Shown here piece after piece: positions 3,193 through 34,685 of a DNA stretch of 63,620 bases. Numbering within the stretch: the first letter of the stretch is position 1; the number at the start of each line of letters is the position of its first letter. The DNA comes from Bacillota bacterium (lineage in GTDB: Bacteria; Bacillota; Limnochordia; DTU080). The DNA is taken from NCBI GenBank assembly GCA_012838035.1, contig DUQB01000159.1:1-63620 (forward strand). Reading direction: 5' to 3'. The notes under the pieces are model-generated. The model ran no database searches, was not told where the DNA came from, and saw only the letters and a program-made list of their open reading frames with translations. The translations under genes were made by a program, and so were the position numbers.

Positions 3193-4425
3193 CTATGCTT
3201 CCATCGACTTTACCGCATCGAGTTGGAACTTTCTGTGTAAGGCTTGTGCCGCACGCTTAATGTGCTCTTCGGCGATCAAGCAAGACACCTTGATCTCAGA
3301 GGTGCTGATCACCTGGATATTGATGTCTTCTTCCGCAAGCGCTTCGAACATACGTGCCGCAACCCCCGGATTGCTCACCATTCCCGCACCGACAATCGAG
3401 ATCTTAGCTACGGTGTCGTCGATCAATACATCACCGGCTCCCAGATCCTGCGCAACAGCCTCAGCTATTTCCCTGACTCTGACCACGTCGTCGCGACTGG
3501 TCGAGAAAACCATATCGGTTACGTTCAGCTCCTTATTGGTCTGGACGATCATATCGACGTTGATTCCCTCTACTGCCAGGCGAGAGAATATGTTGTAGGC
3601 CACGCCGGGGCGGTCGGGAACACTGAGAATAGCAACCTTTGCGACGTTTGTATCGTGAGCCACACCTACTACCAGCATGTCTTTTTCCACTTGGCGTTCC
3701 TCCTGTACAAGGGTGCCCGGATGATAATTATAGCTATTGCGCACACAGAGACGTACTTGGTTCATCGCGGCAAATTCCACTGCGCGAGGCTGTAACACCA
3801 AAGCTCCCAAGCTGGCCATCTCCAGCATCTCCCCATAGGAGATGTCGGTGAGCTTGCGCGCGGTGGATACAATACGCGGATCCGCCGTGTAGACTCCGTC
3901 TACGTCAGTATAAATTTCGCAGACTTCCGCCTGGATTGCCGCAGCCAGTGCGACAGCCGTCGTATCAGAACCGCCTCGTCCTAAGGTGGTGATGTCATTC
4001 CGGCTGTTGACACCTTGAAAACCGGCCACGATGACGATCCGTCCCGCATTAAGCTCTTCTTGGAGTCGCTTGGTGTCCACATGCTTTATGCGAGCCTTCG
4101 TGTGTACGTCATCAGTAAGGATGCCGACCTGCTGTCCCGTCAGCGAGATGACCGGAGCGCCCAGCGCTTCGATGGCCATCGCCAAAAGGGCGATGGAGAC
4201 CTGCTCTCCCGTTGAAAGCAGCATATCCATCTCTCGGCGCGCAGGTTTGCTGTTCACCTGCTTTGCTTTAGCAATGAGCTCGTCCGTGGTGTCACCCATG
4301 GCTGAAACCACCGTGATGACGCTCCACCCATCCTTGTATGCCTTTACAACACGTTCGGCAACTGCTTTTATCCGCTCGGCGTCTTTGACCGAACTACCGC
4401 CATACTTCTGCACTAGAACGCGCAT
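3193..4425 (-). CDS. lysC: Aspartate kinase with two ACT domains
   Basis: [25 protein letters not shown] and [12 protein letters not shown] motifs; C-terminal ACT repeats. Confidence 0.96.
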
Positions 4426-4462
4426 ATGTCTCCCCCATCGAAGCTGTTCAAAGTGTGTACTA

Positions 4463-5389
4463 CTAATGCTCGCGTGCCATCGTCACTACGGAAGCACCTT
4501 TGTTGCAAGGCATCGTCACAAGGTACCGCGCCGATACGCCTGCCGCCGCAAAAGCCGCCGTCATCGCCTCACCAATGGAATCGGCATCTGCGGCATCTGT
4601 GGTCAATGCCATAACCGTAGGGCCGGCTCCCGCCAAGGCTGCACCTAATGCGCCTGCATCTACTGCTGCAAGGCATACCTCTTGCAAGCCGGGAATCAGG
4701 TGCGATCTATACGGTTGATGTAATTTATCTTGCATGGCTTGGGCCAACATCTGCAACTGCCCCGTACACAGCGCAGCCACCAGTAGACTGACGCGACTCA
4801 CGTTGTGAGCAGCATCAGCAAGAGGTACATGACTAGGCAGCACCTGTCGCGCCAGCGCGGTATTTACCGTAAAAGCAGGTACGGTGAGTACAACGTAACA
4901 CGGATCAGGTAATGGTATACTGATGTAGGTTACCTGATTCGTATCAAACACGCAGGTGACAAGGCCGCCCACCAAGGCAGGCACCACGTTGTCGGGATGA
5001 CCTTCAATGACGGTCGCCGCGTGCAGCAACTGTTGGGCGCTTAAAGGTTCTCCCGCCACCGCATTCGCCGCCAGCACGCCGGCTGCCACAGCAGTCGCAC
5101 TGTTGCCTAAGCCCCCGGCAAAAGGCACTTGATTATGCTGCCTGAGGTGGAATCCCGGCGGCGCCTCGCGCCCCAAGCGCCTTAAGGTCGCAGTATATGC
5201 GCGATAGACCAAATGTTGATCATTTTTTGGCAACAGGTCTGCGCCTTCACCCGAGATCTTGATACTGACACCCGGTTGATCGCTGATGGTAAAACTGTAA
5301 CGATTATACAGCGCGACAGCCATGCCTAAGGCATCGAAACCGGGGCCGAAGTTGGCTACGCTCGCCGGTACTTCCAGTGCAATATTCAT
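4463..5389 (-). CDS. thrB: Homoserine kinase
   Basis: [23 protein letters not shown] (GHMP kinase motif), EGHPDNV, LHQPYR. Confidence 0.95.
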
Positions 5390-31596: not shown

Positions 31597-32154
31597 TTAA
31601 TTTGTTGAGCGGTTCTTTGTAAACACCATCACCCGACCAGATTCACGAAAGCCCACTAACTCCTGACGCGGTCCTTCCCCACGAACGTCGGCGAGAATAT
31701 CATCTATCAGCTCATCTTGCAGCAAACGCTCGTCGTCGCGTAAGGCGACTGCGGCTTCCACAACCAAGTTCGTATCGAAATGTTGACGAATCAGGCTGAT
31801 GATTAACGAGAGTTCTTCCCTGGAGAGACTCTCCGCATCGCGAGTAACCTCAACCTGAGTATATTCCCCCAACGTAATGCTCCCTACGCTGAGATGACCG
31901 ATGCGCTGCCCGGATAAATGCGAATATGTCTCCAGATAACTGGACACCATCTGTTCGAAGGCCTGAAAATCGTCTTCCGCATAGCGTTGCCGCACCATGA
32001 AACTAAATGCCAGCTGAGCCTTGCCGGGACGAAAGCGGACGGAGTCGATCTCGTTGTAACGGATTAAGAGTGATACCAACAACGATGCGTGCTGCGAGAT
32101 ACTCTCCCCACTCAACACGACAGACCGGGAATCCGGCAAAACCTCACCCCACAC
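31597..32154 (-). CDS. Conserved hypothetical protein between rny and spoVS
   Basis: 185-aa ORF with protein-like composition, co-oriented with its neighbours; family not recognised with certainty. Confidence 0.75.
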   Translation of the reverse strand: MWGEVLPDSRSVVLSGESISQHASLLVSLLIRYNEIDSVRFRPGKAQLAFSFMVRQRYAEDDFQAFEQMVSSYLETYSHLSGQRIGHLSVGSITLGEYTQVEVTRDAESLSREELSLIISLIRQHFDTNLVVEAAVALRDDERLLQDELIDDILADVRGEGPRQELVGFRESGRVMVFTKNRSTN

Positions 32155-32296: not shown

Positions 32297-33829
32297 TTAT
32301 TTCGCGTACTCGACGGATCGAGTTTCTCGAATTACAGTGACCTTAATTTGCCCTGGATATTCAAGCTCAGCTTCAATCCGCTTGACTATATCGCGTGCAA
32401 TTTTGGTTGCAGCGGCGTCATCCACCTTATCCGGTTTGACGATGATTCTAATCTCGCGACCGGCTTGGATGGCATACGACTTCTCTACGCCGTCGAAACT
32501 GTCGGCGATGGCCTCGAGTTTCTCCAAGCGCTTGATATAGTTCTCCAGTGTTTCGCGACGTGCGCCGGGCCGCGCCGCCGAGATGCTGTCCGCCGCGCTG
32601 ACCAGCACAGCTTCTACCGTGTGAGGTTCATAATCGCCGTGGTGACACTCCATGGCATGAATGACTTCACGAGATTCACGGTACTTGCGCAGCAGGTCGC
32701 GACCGATCTCCAAGTGAGTTCCCTCAACCTCGTGATCAACCGCTTTACCTATGTCGTGCAATAAACCGGCACGTTTTGCAACTTGGACGTCGCCGCCTAT
32801 TTCCGCTGCCATAATGCCGGCCAGATGACTCACTTCTATACTGTGTTTAAGCACGCTCTGCCCGTAGCTGGTACGGAAACGCAGCCGCCCCAGAAGCTTG
32901 ATCAACTCCGGATGGAGTCCGTGCACCCCCGTGTCGAAGGTTGCTTGTTCTCCCGTATCGCGGATGACTTGATCAACTTCCTTCTGCGCCTTCTCCACCA
33001 TCTCCTCAATCCGAGCCGGATGAATACGGCCGTCGGCGACCAACTTTTCAAGAGCAATCCGAGCAATTTCACGTCGGATGGGATCAAAACCGGATAGGAT
33101 AACCGCTTCCGGAGTGTCGTCGATAATCAGATCTATGCCCGTGAGTGTTTCCAGAGTGCGAATATTACGGCCTTCGCGCCCGATGATCCGCCCTTTCATA
33201 TCATCACTGGGCAGGTTGACAACCGACACCGTACTCTCGGTAACATGGTCGGCTGCACAACGTTGAATCGCCAAGGAGACAATGTTGCGCGCACGTCTGT
33301 CTCCTTCTTCACGTGCTTCAGTTTCGATCTCTTTAATCTTCATCGCCATTTCATGGCGAACTTCGTCTTCAGTGCGCTTCAGTAGGAAATTCCTAGCCTC
33401 TTCGCCGGTCATGCCGGCAAGCCTTTCCAGTTCTTGCTGCCAGTACTCCGACATGCTGGAGACTTTGGCTTGCGCAACCTCTAATTCTTGCTTTTGTTGC
33501 TCAATCAACCGTTCCCTTATTTCAATCTGTTCAGTCTTCTTTTCCAGACTTTCTTCTTTGTTAATAAGGCGACGCTCATGTTGGTTCAGCTCATTACGGC
33601 GCTCGCGTAGTTCACGCTCGCTTTCGCTGCGCATTTTGTGCACTTCTTCTTTTGCTTCCAACAGAACTTCGCGTTTTTTAGCTTCCGCATCTTGCCCGGC
33701 TTGTGCGACGATTCGTTTGGCCTCCGACTCTGCGGAGCCCAACTTGGCTTCAGCCATAGAGCGACGCACGTAGTAGCCGAGAGCAAATGCAACTATCCCT
33801 ACGACAATGGCTATAACCGTTGCTAATAT
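32297..33829 (-). CDS. rny: Ribonuclease Y (probable ATA start, including the N-terminal TM helix)
   Basis: Coiled coil, KH motif ([12 protein letters not shown]), HD domain ([19 protein letters not shown]); in-frame [22 protein letters not shown] helix upstream of the annotated GTG. Confidence 0.95.
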
Positions 33830-33911
33830 ATTGTTCTACCTCCCTTCACTCAATGATCCGCATTACATTTTCGTCAGGATTACAGGCAGAGACCTGGGAA
33901 ACCGAGGGTTA

Positions 33912-34025
33912 CAAAGAAAGCCGAGCGCATAACTCGGCTTACAGTCATACCATTGGTACTTCCGTATGAGGTGAACCCCGGGAGACGACCCAAGCTGACT
34001 CTACCGTATGGGGAACTAAAGCCCA
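33912..34025 (-). ncRNA. Candidate structured leader or sRNA upstream of rny, ending in an intrinsic terminator
   Basis: P1 AGUCA/UGACU, P2 CUUGGG/CCCGGG, terminator AAGCCGAG/CUCGGCUU followed by UCUUU. Confidence 0.55.
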
Positions 34026-34031
34026 ATGTTT

Positions 34032-34060
34032 ATTTTATTCTGTGTCGGATTGAATGTCAA
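34032..34060 (-). promoter_or_regulatory. Near-consensus sigma-A promoter embedded in the recX 3' end
   Basis: TTGACA-N17-TAAAAT; the -10 element overlaps the recX stop codon. Confidence 0.75.
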
Positions 34061-34685
34061 CATCAGGAACCACCTGCGTTAGGCACCAACGTATGGTTGA
34101 CCAATCGAATCCGCGGCGTTGTAATAAGGCAGCCAAGCGCCGCACCGCCGCATCTCGCTTTTCCGGCGTCGTCGGTCGCCATGCCTTAAGGGCTATTTGG
34201 AGCGCTCTTTGCCGTTCTTCCGCGGCGTCCAGTTCAGATACGACTTCTCGAGCCAGTTCCCGCTCTACGCCGCGACGGGCAAGCTCTTCTTGAATACGGC
34301 GCAGACCAAACTTACCTTGGCGTTGCAGGGAAGCAGCCAGGTTTCTGGCATACGCGGCATCATCGATATAACCCAACTCCTGCACACGCTGTACGGCGGC
34401 CTGACACGCCGCGCAACTGAACCTTTTTTGCCGCAGTTTCTTAAGCAAACCCTGCTTTGATAGAGGCGTGCGTGCAATCATATCGAGCGCGGCTCTACGC
34501 GCCAATATGGTTTCCGCCTGCGCGCCGAGTTCATTGCGCTCCGCTTGCGTTAGTTCGCTTCCCACTCGCAGTTGCCGCGAGACTAGAAGCTCATCGGGAC
34601 ATAGCAACACCGACTCATCATGCCAACTAAGCCGATATAAACCTGGTCTACGCGTCTTCTTAATGCTTATCAGCACACATTTCAT
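34035..34685 (-). CDS. recX: Regulatory protein RecX
   Basis: ALDMIAR, GYIDDAAYAR, I.EELARRGV, LQRRGF motifs; follows recA. Confidence 0.9.
   Translation of the reverse strand: MKCVLISIKKTRRPGLYRLSWHDESVLLCPDELLVSRQLRVGSELTQAERNELGAQAETILARRAALDMIARTPLSKQGLLKKLRQKRFSCAACQAAVQRVQELGYIDDAAYARNLAASLQRQGKFGLRRIQEELARRGVERELAREVVSELDAAEERQRALQIALKAWRPTTPEKRDAAVRRLAALLQRRGFDWSTIRWCLTQVVPDVDIQSDTE

Follow-up and report, generated by a model that had tools for sequence, protein, structure and literature searches.

A weak ATA codon as the almost certain start of an RNase Y gene with a very strong Shine-Dalgarno sequence, and the clade-structured spread of such predicted starts in the Firmicutes

The window analyzed here, 63,620 nucleotides of contig DUQB01000159.1, carries on its minus strand a gene for RNase Y (rny) whose neighbors are recA, recX, and spoVS, the usual Firmicute context of this gene. 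Between rny and spoVS lies an open reading frame (ORF) of 185 residues (31597-32154, minus strand) without a Pfam match; the gene at the corresponding position in Bacillus subtilis is ymdB. Taken from an ATA codon at 33827-33829 to its stop codon, the rny coding sequence occupies 32297-33829 of the minus strand and encodes 510 residues with a transmembrane helix, a coiled coil, a KH domain, and an HD domain. By reverse complement and translation, the minus strand around this codon reads ...GAGTGAAGGGAGG TAG AAC AAT ATA TTA GCA ACG GTT ATA GCC ATT GTC GTA GGG ATA GTT GCA TTT GCT CTC GGC TAC TAC GTG CGT CGC.... The in-frame TAG (33836-33838, minus strand) closes the frame upstream and overlaps the 3' end of an extended Shine-Dalgarno (SD) sequence, GAAGGGAGGT (33838-33847, minus strand), which forms a duplex with the canonical Firmicute anti-SD and whose GGGAGG core (33839-33844) is separated from the ATA by a spacer of 9 nt (33838-33830). 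The first canonical codon downstream of the TAG is a GTG at 33767-33769 (minus strand), which is an internal valine codon in this frame and the start chosen by a mechanical ORF caller. The ATA is the sole in-frame ATN at a working distance from the SD, and not one ATG, GTG, TTG, or CTG stands between the TAG (33838-33836) and GTG 33769. A stretch of 22 codons lacking a canonical start has a chance of about 1 in 4 and is unsurprising taken alone; what lies beyond chance, as judged from the sequence comparisons below, is the homology of this stretch to the N-terminus of RNase Y, the strength and spacing of the SD, and the retention of the arrangement in relatives.

The sequence-only reading had described this layout, namely, that the listed ORF of rny opens at GTG 33769 and lacks the membrane anchor, that the upstream frame is an RNase Y transmembrane helix bounded by the TAG, that no canonical codon intervenes, and that a strong GGGAGG SD stands 9 nt before ATA 33829. 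All of this holds: the reverse-complement read agrees, the SD positions are exact, and the helix is borne out both by its hydropathy and by a profile match that begins at position 2. The N-terminal anchor (codons 2 to 20; 33770-33826, minus strand) averages 3.0 on the Kyte-Doolittle hydropathy scale over 17 residues, aligns to the first 18 to 20 positions of TIGR03319 and PF12072, and ends in a G-Y-x-V-R-R junction, a motif conserved in relatives. Against the RNase Y equivalog profile TIGR03319, the protein begun at the ATA scores 783.5 bits (curated cut-off, 454.35), with residues 5 to 510 on positions 2 to 514 of 514, a full-length match; the form begun at GTG 33769 scores 14.4 bits lower and starts at profile position 19, with the first 18 positions lost. 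Pfam domains on the ATA-start protein follow the expected order, with RNase_Y_N (PF12072) at residues 4 to 195 (profile positions 3 to 201 of 201), KH_1 (PF00013) at 205 to 261, and HD (PF01966) at 326 to 418. The architecture of RNase Y, a single N-terminal transmembrane helix followed by the RNase_Y_N coiled coil, KH, and HD, is thus present, the anchor only with the ATA start, and the predicted ATA-start product is a complete membrane-anchored RNase Y.

The SD before the ATA is exceptional within its own genome. Its duplex with the anti-SD is 10 bp long (GAAGGGAGGU, with one G-U pair) and has a free energy of -17.4 kcal/mol, where the anti-SD is taken to be the canonical Firmicute one because this metagenome-assembled genome (MAG) has no 16S gene; only 0.7% of 1,643 long ORFs of the same genome have an equal or stronger SD. 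Where relatives have GGAGGTG with an in-frame GTG, the window has GGAGGTAG, and a start at a GTG embedded in the SD is therefore excluded here. Comparison of the window spacer, GGAGGT-A-GAACAATATA, with that of one relative, GGAGGTGAACAATATA in L010, locates one extra base in the window, through which the embedded GTG is destroyed and the TAG is created. An indel is tolerated in this spacer, as would be expected of untranslated sequence. The predicted fold of the 259-nt leader was no more stable than that of shuffled sequences (z = -0.49), and we therefore give no weight to a structure that sequesters the SD.

To place this start in a wider context, rny loci were sampled from 40 relatives of the window's genome, 80 named genomes across the Firmicutes, and 80 metagenome contigs; each start was classified by finding the strongest SD before the transmembrane helix and listing the in-frame codons 4 to 14 nt downstream of it. 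In the window's family, the start position holds ATA in four of the six species and ATT in the other two. A stop directly precedes the ATA in the window (TAG) and in L004 (TGA), L005 (TAA), and L006 (TAA), and in a fifth species, L003, the GTG within the SD lies in another frame than rny; in five of the six, therefore, only ATA, ATT, or ATC (hereafter ATH) can start the anchor. An in-frame stop between or over the SD and the ATH was also found outside the family in three unrelated lineages, represented by L032 (Lutisporaceae), L072 (Syntrophomonadaceae), and L126; at these loci, as in the window and L004 to L006, no other start gives the conserved anchor. Relatives outside the family mostly carry an in-frame GTG inside GGAGGTG, and for them the ATH start is assigned by SD geometry and nothing else.

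The sequence-only reading had called for rny starts to be compared in relatives, and across the window's class the homologous codon is ATA, ATT, or ATC in 23 of 30 genomes and ATG in 5, with 2 unclear. The 28 classified loci of the class divide into 8 ATA, 8 ATT, 7 ATC, and 5 ATG, while the two codons before this position and those after it occur in 14 to 19 different forms, with stops among those before. Two fixed bases and a free third in such unconstrained surroundings are what a start codon decoded by initiator tRNA should show, and not what a conserved isoleucine should, although the count is partly circular since the classifier looks for ATN. Counted fairly, 28 of the 30 class loci have an ATN among the approximately three in-frame codons at a working distance, against a background of 11% per codon.

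Across the Firmicutes, 179 rny loci could be classified, with ATH starts at 57, CTG at 2, ATG at 64, GTG at 40, and TTG at 16; near-cognate starts therefore make up about one-third of the sampled loci (59/179). They sit at a tightly defined distance, a spacing of exactly 8 nt from the SD core being shared by 43 of the 59, whereas ATG starts, which occupy the same position in orthologues, are spread over 4 to 14 nt from the SD. The two CTG loci (L045 and L121; GGAGGTGAGGGGT CTG) have this codon where others have ATH or ATG, another near-cognate start. Among named genomes, ATH starts were found in all six Negativicutes (Veillonella, Propionispira, and Selenomonadaceae) and all three Syntrophomonadaceae but in none of 16 Bacilli (canonical, mostly ATG), 8 Lachnospiraceae (mostly GTG), or 5 Oscillospiraceae. 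Species with the ATH start that can be cultured include Veillonella parvula (ATT), Propionispira raffinosivorans (ATT/ATC), and Syntrophomonas zehnderi or S. wolfei (ATA/ATT). Altogether, the lineages with an ATH start of rny comprise all sampled Negativicutes and Syntrophomonadaceae, 9 of 11 families of the window's class, Lutisporaceae, and some Eubacteriaceae and Peptococcaceae. Two further observations concern individual groups. The rny of Veillonella (L063/L192) is on record with a start at the GTG within the SD (M-N-T-I-L-E-Y..., 515 amino acids), and the form begun at ATT (512 amino acids) is not on record among the gene calls. In rny of the Lachnospiraceae type (L066, L074, L090, L094 to L096, L133, L137, L147, L150, and approximately 30 more), the initiation region is a near-invariant TAAGGAGGTGCTCCTGTG with GTG 7 nt after GGAGG, and its conservation greatly exceeds that of the coding sequence downstream.

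On the RNase Y tree, start type changes 19 times, against 49.6 times (minimum, 42) with shuffled labels, so that by this comparison the near-cognate start of rny is a clade-structured trait. Changes between ATH and ATG number 14, against 16 among ATA, ATT, and ATC. As ATH-to-ATG changes are about as frequent as those within ATH, what these counts indicate is the persistence and tolerance of a weak start rather than selection against ATG at this position.

We weighed four other accounts of this N-terminus. Initiation might fall on an inner near-cognate codon or on several codons, giving a shortened anchor; ACG 33820, ATA 33814, and ATT 33808 exist in frame and near-cognate initiation can be imprecise, but these codons are 18 to 30 nt from the SD, outside its working range, whereas the near-cognate starts of relatives lie 8 to 9 nt after the SD in 48 of 59 loci and profile coverage already begins at residue 4 or 5 of the ATA-start protein, and we consider this account improbable. 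That translation begins instead at GTG 33769, yielding a soluble RNase Y without an anchor and leaving the upstream open frame as a relic, is more doubtful still. The GTG is the first canonical codon and the choice of ORF callers, and a detached RNase Y is reported to be tolerated by B. subtilis, with altered expression (PMC11313650). However, the GTG is not preceded by an SD (-1.7 kcal/mol, weaker than approximately 90% of the ORFs of the genome), the homologous valine codon is GTT or GTC in relatives, and one of the strongest SDs of the genome would then serve no ORF; moreover, the 20 codons upstream match the RNase Y family profile and keep the hydrophobic helix and the G-Y-x-V-R-R motif intact across species that are only 80% identical.

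An assembly or sequencing error, in which the true codon is ATG or an indel hides a canonical start in frame, can be considered in the light of the same relatives. The genome is a 253-contig draft, and no independent contig of the same species was found by an exact-protein look-up, by an exact DNA pattern in which the key bases could vary, or by a protein-guided scan of metagenome contigs (best match, 70% identity). Against an error, the upstream out-of-frame ATG and GTG codons all reach stops within a few codons; ATA or ATT occupies the same place in five other species of the family that were assembled independently, three of them with an upstream stop; and numerous lineages, as well as metagenome contigs, display this layout again. 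We regard such an error as very unlikely. A short upstream ORF from TTG 33853 to TAG 33836 (TTG AGT GAA GGG AGG TAG, in frame with rny), followed by re-initiation at the ATA or by readthrough of the TAG, can be practically dismissed, as the TTG has no SD, the mini-ORF is not conserved in the family (L004 to L006 have no in-frame start upstream), and the frame of the ATH relative to the SD differs from one relative to another. We likewise rejected, by reasoning, an A-to-I editing that would turn AUA into AUI, because the codon lacks the UACG context of TadA-type editing and the ATT and ATC of relatives cannot be edited to a G-like base.

Translation of rny from AUA 33829 is, with high probability, the best explanation of these data, in keeping with the proposal of the sequence-only reading, and SD, profile coverage, and relatives all support it. 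The marks of a near-cognate start are present together: no canonical codon is able to give the conserved N-terminus, an in-frame AUA lies at the optimal distance (a 9-nt spacer) from a strong, extended SD, and the codon is conserved in orthologues (6/6 in the family, 23/30 in the class, and 59/179 overall, with clade structure). The gene thus almost certainly has no normal start codon and begins at a weak ATA behind a very strong SD, and the comparative sequence evidence indicates that the near-cognate start is tied to this gene and spans the lineage; it did not arise by accident in this assembly.

The leader of rny carries two further elements. In the window, a promoter-like TTGACA-N17-TAAAAT (34060-34032, minus strand) is followed by a terminator-like hairpin, AAGCCGAG..CTCGGCTT plus a T-tract (33940-33910, minus strand). 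A near-consensus sigma-A promoter (TTGACA-N17-TAnAAT), then 67 to 118 variable nucleotides, and then the hairpin recur at at least 22 loci of several families, among them the window, L003, L004, L010, L017, L018, L022, L029, L030, L039, L072, and L112; over all 179 loci, 36 have the hairpin and 22 the promoter. The hairpin lies 23 to 97 nt upstream of the rny SD, and families share its stem in sequence as well as in shape (RGCCGAGU-loop-ACUCGGCUUUCUUU). A search of positions 33600-34200 against Rfam returned no family at E values up to 1. The hairpin may be an attenuator or a protein-binding element. In raw counts it accompanies 29 of 59 near-cognate loci but only 7 of 120 others; this link to the start codon disappears when phylogenetically independent pairs are compared (median P = 0.5), and we do not uphold it.

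To see how the rest of the genome behaves, we scanned it for GGAGG followed after 6 to 10 nt by any codon that opens a long frame without a nearby canonical start. At this position ATG, GTG, and TTG were far above background, while ATT (4), ATC (3), and ATA (at most 2) were no more common than ordinary sense codons. The idea that this organism uses ATH starts generally was therefore dropped, there being no genome-wide excess and nearly all candidates being out-of-frame noise; among the hits inspected, the only clear ATH cases were rny and infC. The latter, outside the window on contig C200 (approximately 4314-4871, plus strand), starts at an ATT 9 nt after GGAGG (TGGAGGTGGCCAGCT ATT), and its initiation region, TGGAGGTGG CCAGCT ATT, has no canonical codon before the conserved N-terminus. 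As a separate observation, a 425-codon frame on the minus strand of contig C248, near 5391 and also outside the window, begins IEQNPPFEAIVRENQQWLLRYAAQIVG... and resembles an ECF sigma factor; a perfect GAGGAGGTGATCACCT precedes an ATC in it and no canonical start occurs for 34 codons, which makes this ATC a possible third start of the near-cognate type.

Near-cognate starts behind strong SDs are a known kind, represented by infC, pcnB, and a set of genes in Staphylococcus aureus, and rny is not among the described cases that we found. In the largely open-access literature searched on RNase Y start codons and autoregulation, there was no published near-cognate start of rny. The start of rny resembles that of infC (AUU or AUA in Escherichia coli, B. 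subtilis, and S. aureus) in being a near-cognate AUH that follows a strong SD at the optimal distance and is kept from lineage to lineage, and infC of the same genome has the layout GGAGGTGG-N6-ATT. The weak codon of infC closes an autoregulatory loop, since IF3 acts against initiation at the very codon from which it is itself made. RNase Y does not belong to the initiation factors, and any IF3 dependence of rny would therefore be feed-forward, unlike the autoregulation of infC.

In S. aureus, AUA and AUU starts with extended SDs (infC, ccpN, citZ, and cvfC1) yield approximately 10% of the output of AUG, and 30% in rich medium (PMC13009471, 2026), and those of ccpN (AUA), cvfC1 (AUU), and citZ (AUA) have been mapped by Ribo-Ret (PMC13009471). 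The rny of the window is like these three in being a Firmicute gene with an extended SD and a conserved AUA or AUU start. Neither rny nor RNase Y is mentioned in that paper (PMC13009471), and the case of rny differs from the S. aureus set in coming from other Firmicute lineages and being known from sequence, the rny of Bacilli having a canonical start in 16 of 16 sampled genomes. Another parallel is E. coli pcnB, which encodes poly(A) polymerase I and has an AUU start (Binns and Masters 2002, as cited in PMC13009471 and bioRxiv 10.1101/063800). Like RNase Y, this is an RNA-decay enzyme harmful in excess, and its synthesis is limited by an inefficient start codon; unlike RNase Y, it is an unrelated protein of a different phylum, and in other phyla the pcnB start switches between AUG, GUG, and UUG (Hecht et al.), whereas rny keeps AUH in whole clades.

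The closest comparison for the gene itself is B. subtilis rny, whose SD, at -17.5 kcal/mol, is among the strongest in that genome (PMC10303841) and is matched by the -17.4 kcal/mol of the window. A ribosome at this SD stops RNase J1 at about position -15, and RNase Y lowers its own mRNA by cleaving the leader and the early ORF (PMC10303841). A long leader with its own promoter has been described for B. subtilis rny (PMC10303841) and is predicted in the window. The start codons differ, sampled Bacilli being canonical; AUC occurs in the B. subtilis study only as an artificial mutation, which lowered expression to a low but still detectable level (PMC10303841). In E. coli reporters, AUA, AUC, AUU, and CUG give 1 to 2% of the expression of AUG (bioRxiv 10.1101/063800), IF3 tolerates a mismatch only at the third base of the codon (PMC10158994), and initiation at non-AUG codons responds with particular sensitivity to ppGpp and to a shortage of nutrients (PMC5499595).

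The sequence-only reading had suggested that low or IF3-sensitive translation could tune the main mRNA-decay nuclease, which is plausible by analogy with the systems above. In such a scheme, the 30S subunit would be held by the 10-bp SD/anti-SD duplex, whose 3' end lies 8 to 9 nt upstream of the AUA, an optimal distance. From what is known of initiation biochemistry, initiator fMet-tRNA would read the AUA with a third-base mismatch, and the protein would begin with fMet. Proofreading by IF3 against AUA complexes would then keep output per mRNA at a small fraction of that of AUG, and by analogy rny output might rise when IF3 is scarce and fall under ppGpp or nutrient limitation. As the B. subtilis work suggests (PMC10303841), a ribosome parked at the strong SD may also shield rny mRNA from 5'-exonucleolytic inactivation by RNase J, which is encoded in this genome (636.8 bits). 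A strong SD combined with a weak codon would in this way keep the message stable while holding down, in a condition-sensitive manner, the yield of a nuclease that does harm when overabundant. The parts assigned to IF3, ppGpp, and RNase J are drawn from these other systems and remain conditional on the analogy. In its widest form, the proposal would see in the AUH start of rny a long-established throttle, maintained by selection and paired with a near-maximal SD, in which the SD-bound 30S subunit guards the message from RNase J while IF3 together with ppGpp or nutrient state gates the passage into elongation, coupling the level of RNase Y and global mRNA half-life to the state of translation, with infC and rny as a two-gene IF3-sensing set; we advance this version tentatively and consider it somewhat unlikely as a whole.

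The assignment of these starts has direct consequences for annotation. Gene callers that accept only ATG, GTG, and TTG cut off the anchor (490 versus 510 residues here) or start at the GTG embedded in the SD, and predictions of RNase Y localization from annotated proteomes would be wrong for clades with near-cognate starts. RNase Y initiates most mRNA breakdown and sets mRNA lifetimes in Firmicutes, and to our knowledge control of its amount has been described for B. subtilis alone, where it acts through mRNA decay. If true, conservation of a weak start would add a translational control point to this nuclease in lineages with tractable or important members such as Veillonella, relatives of Selenomonas, and syntrophs.
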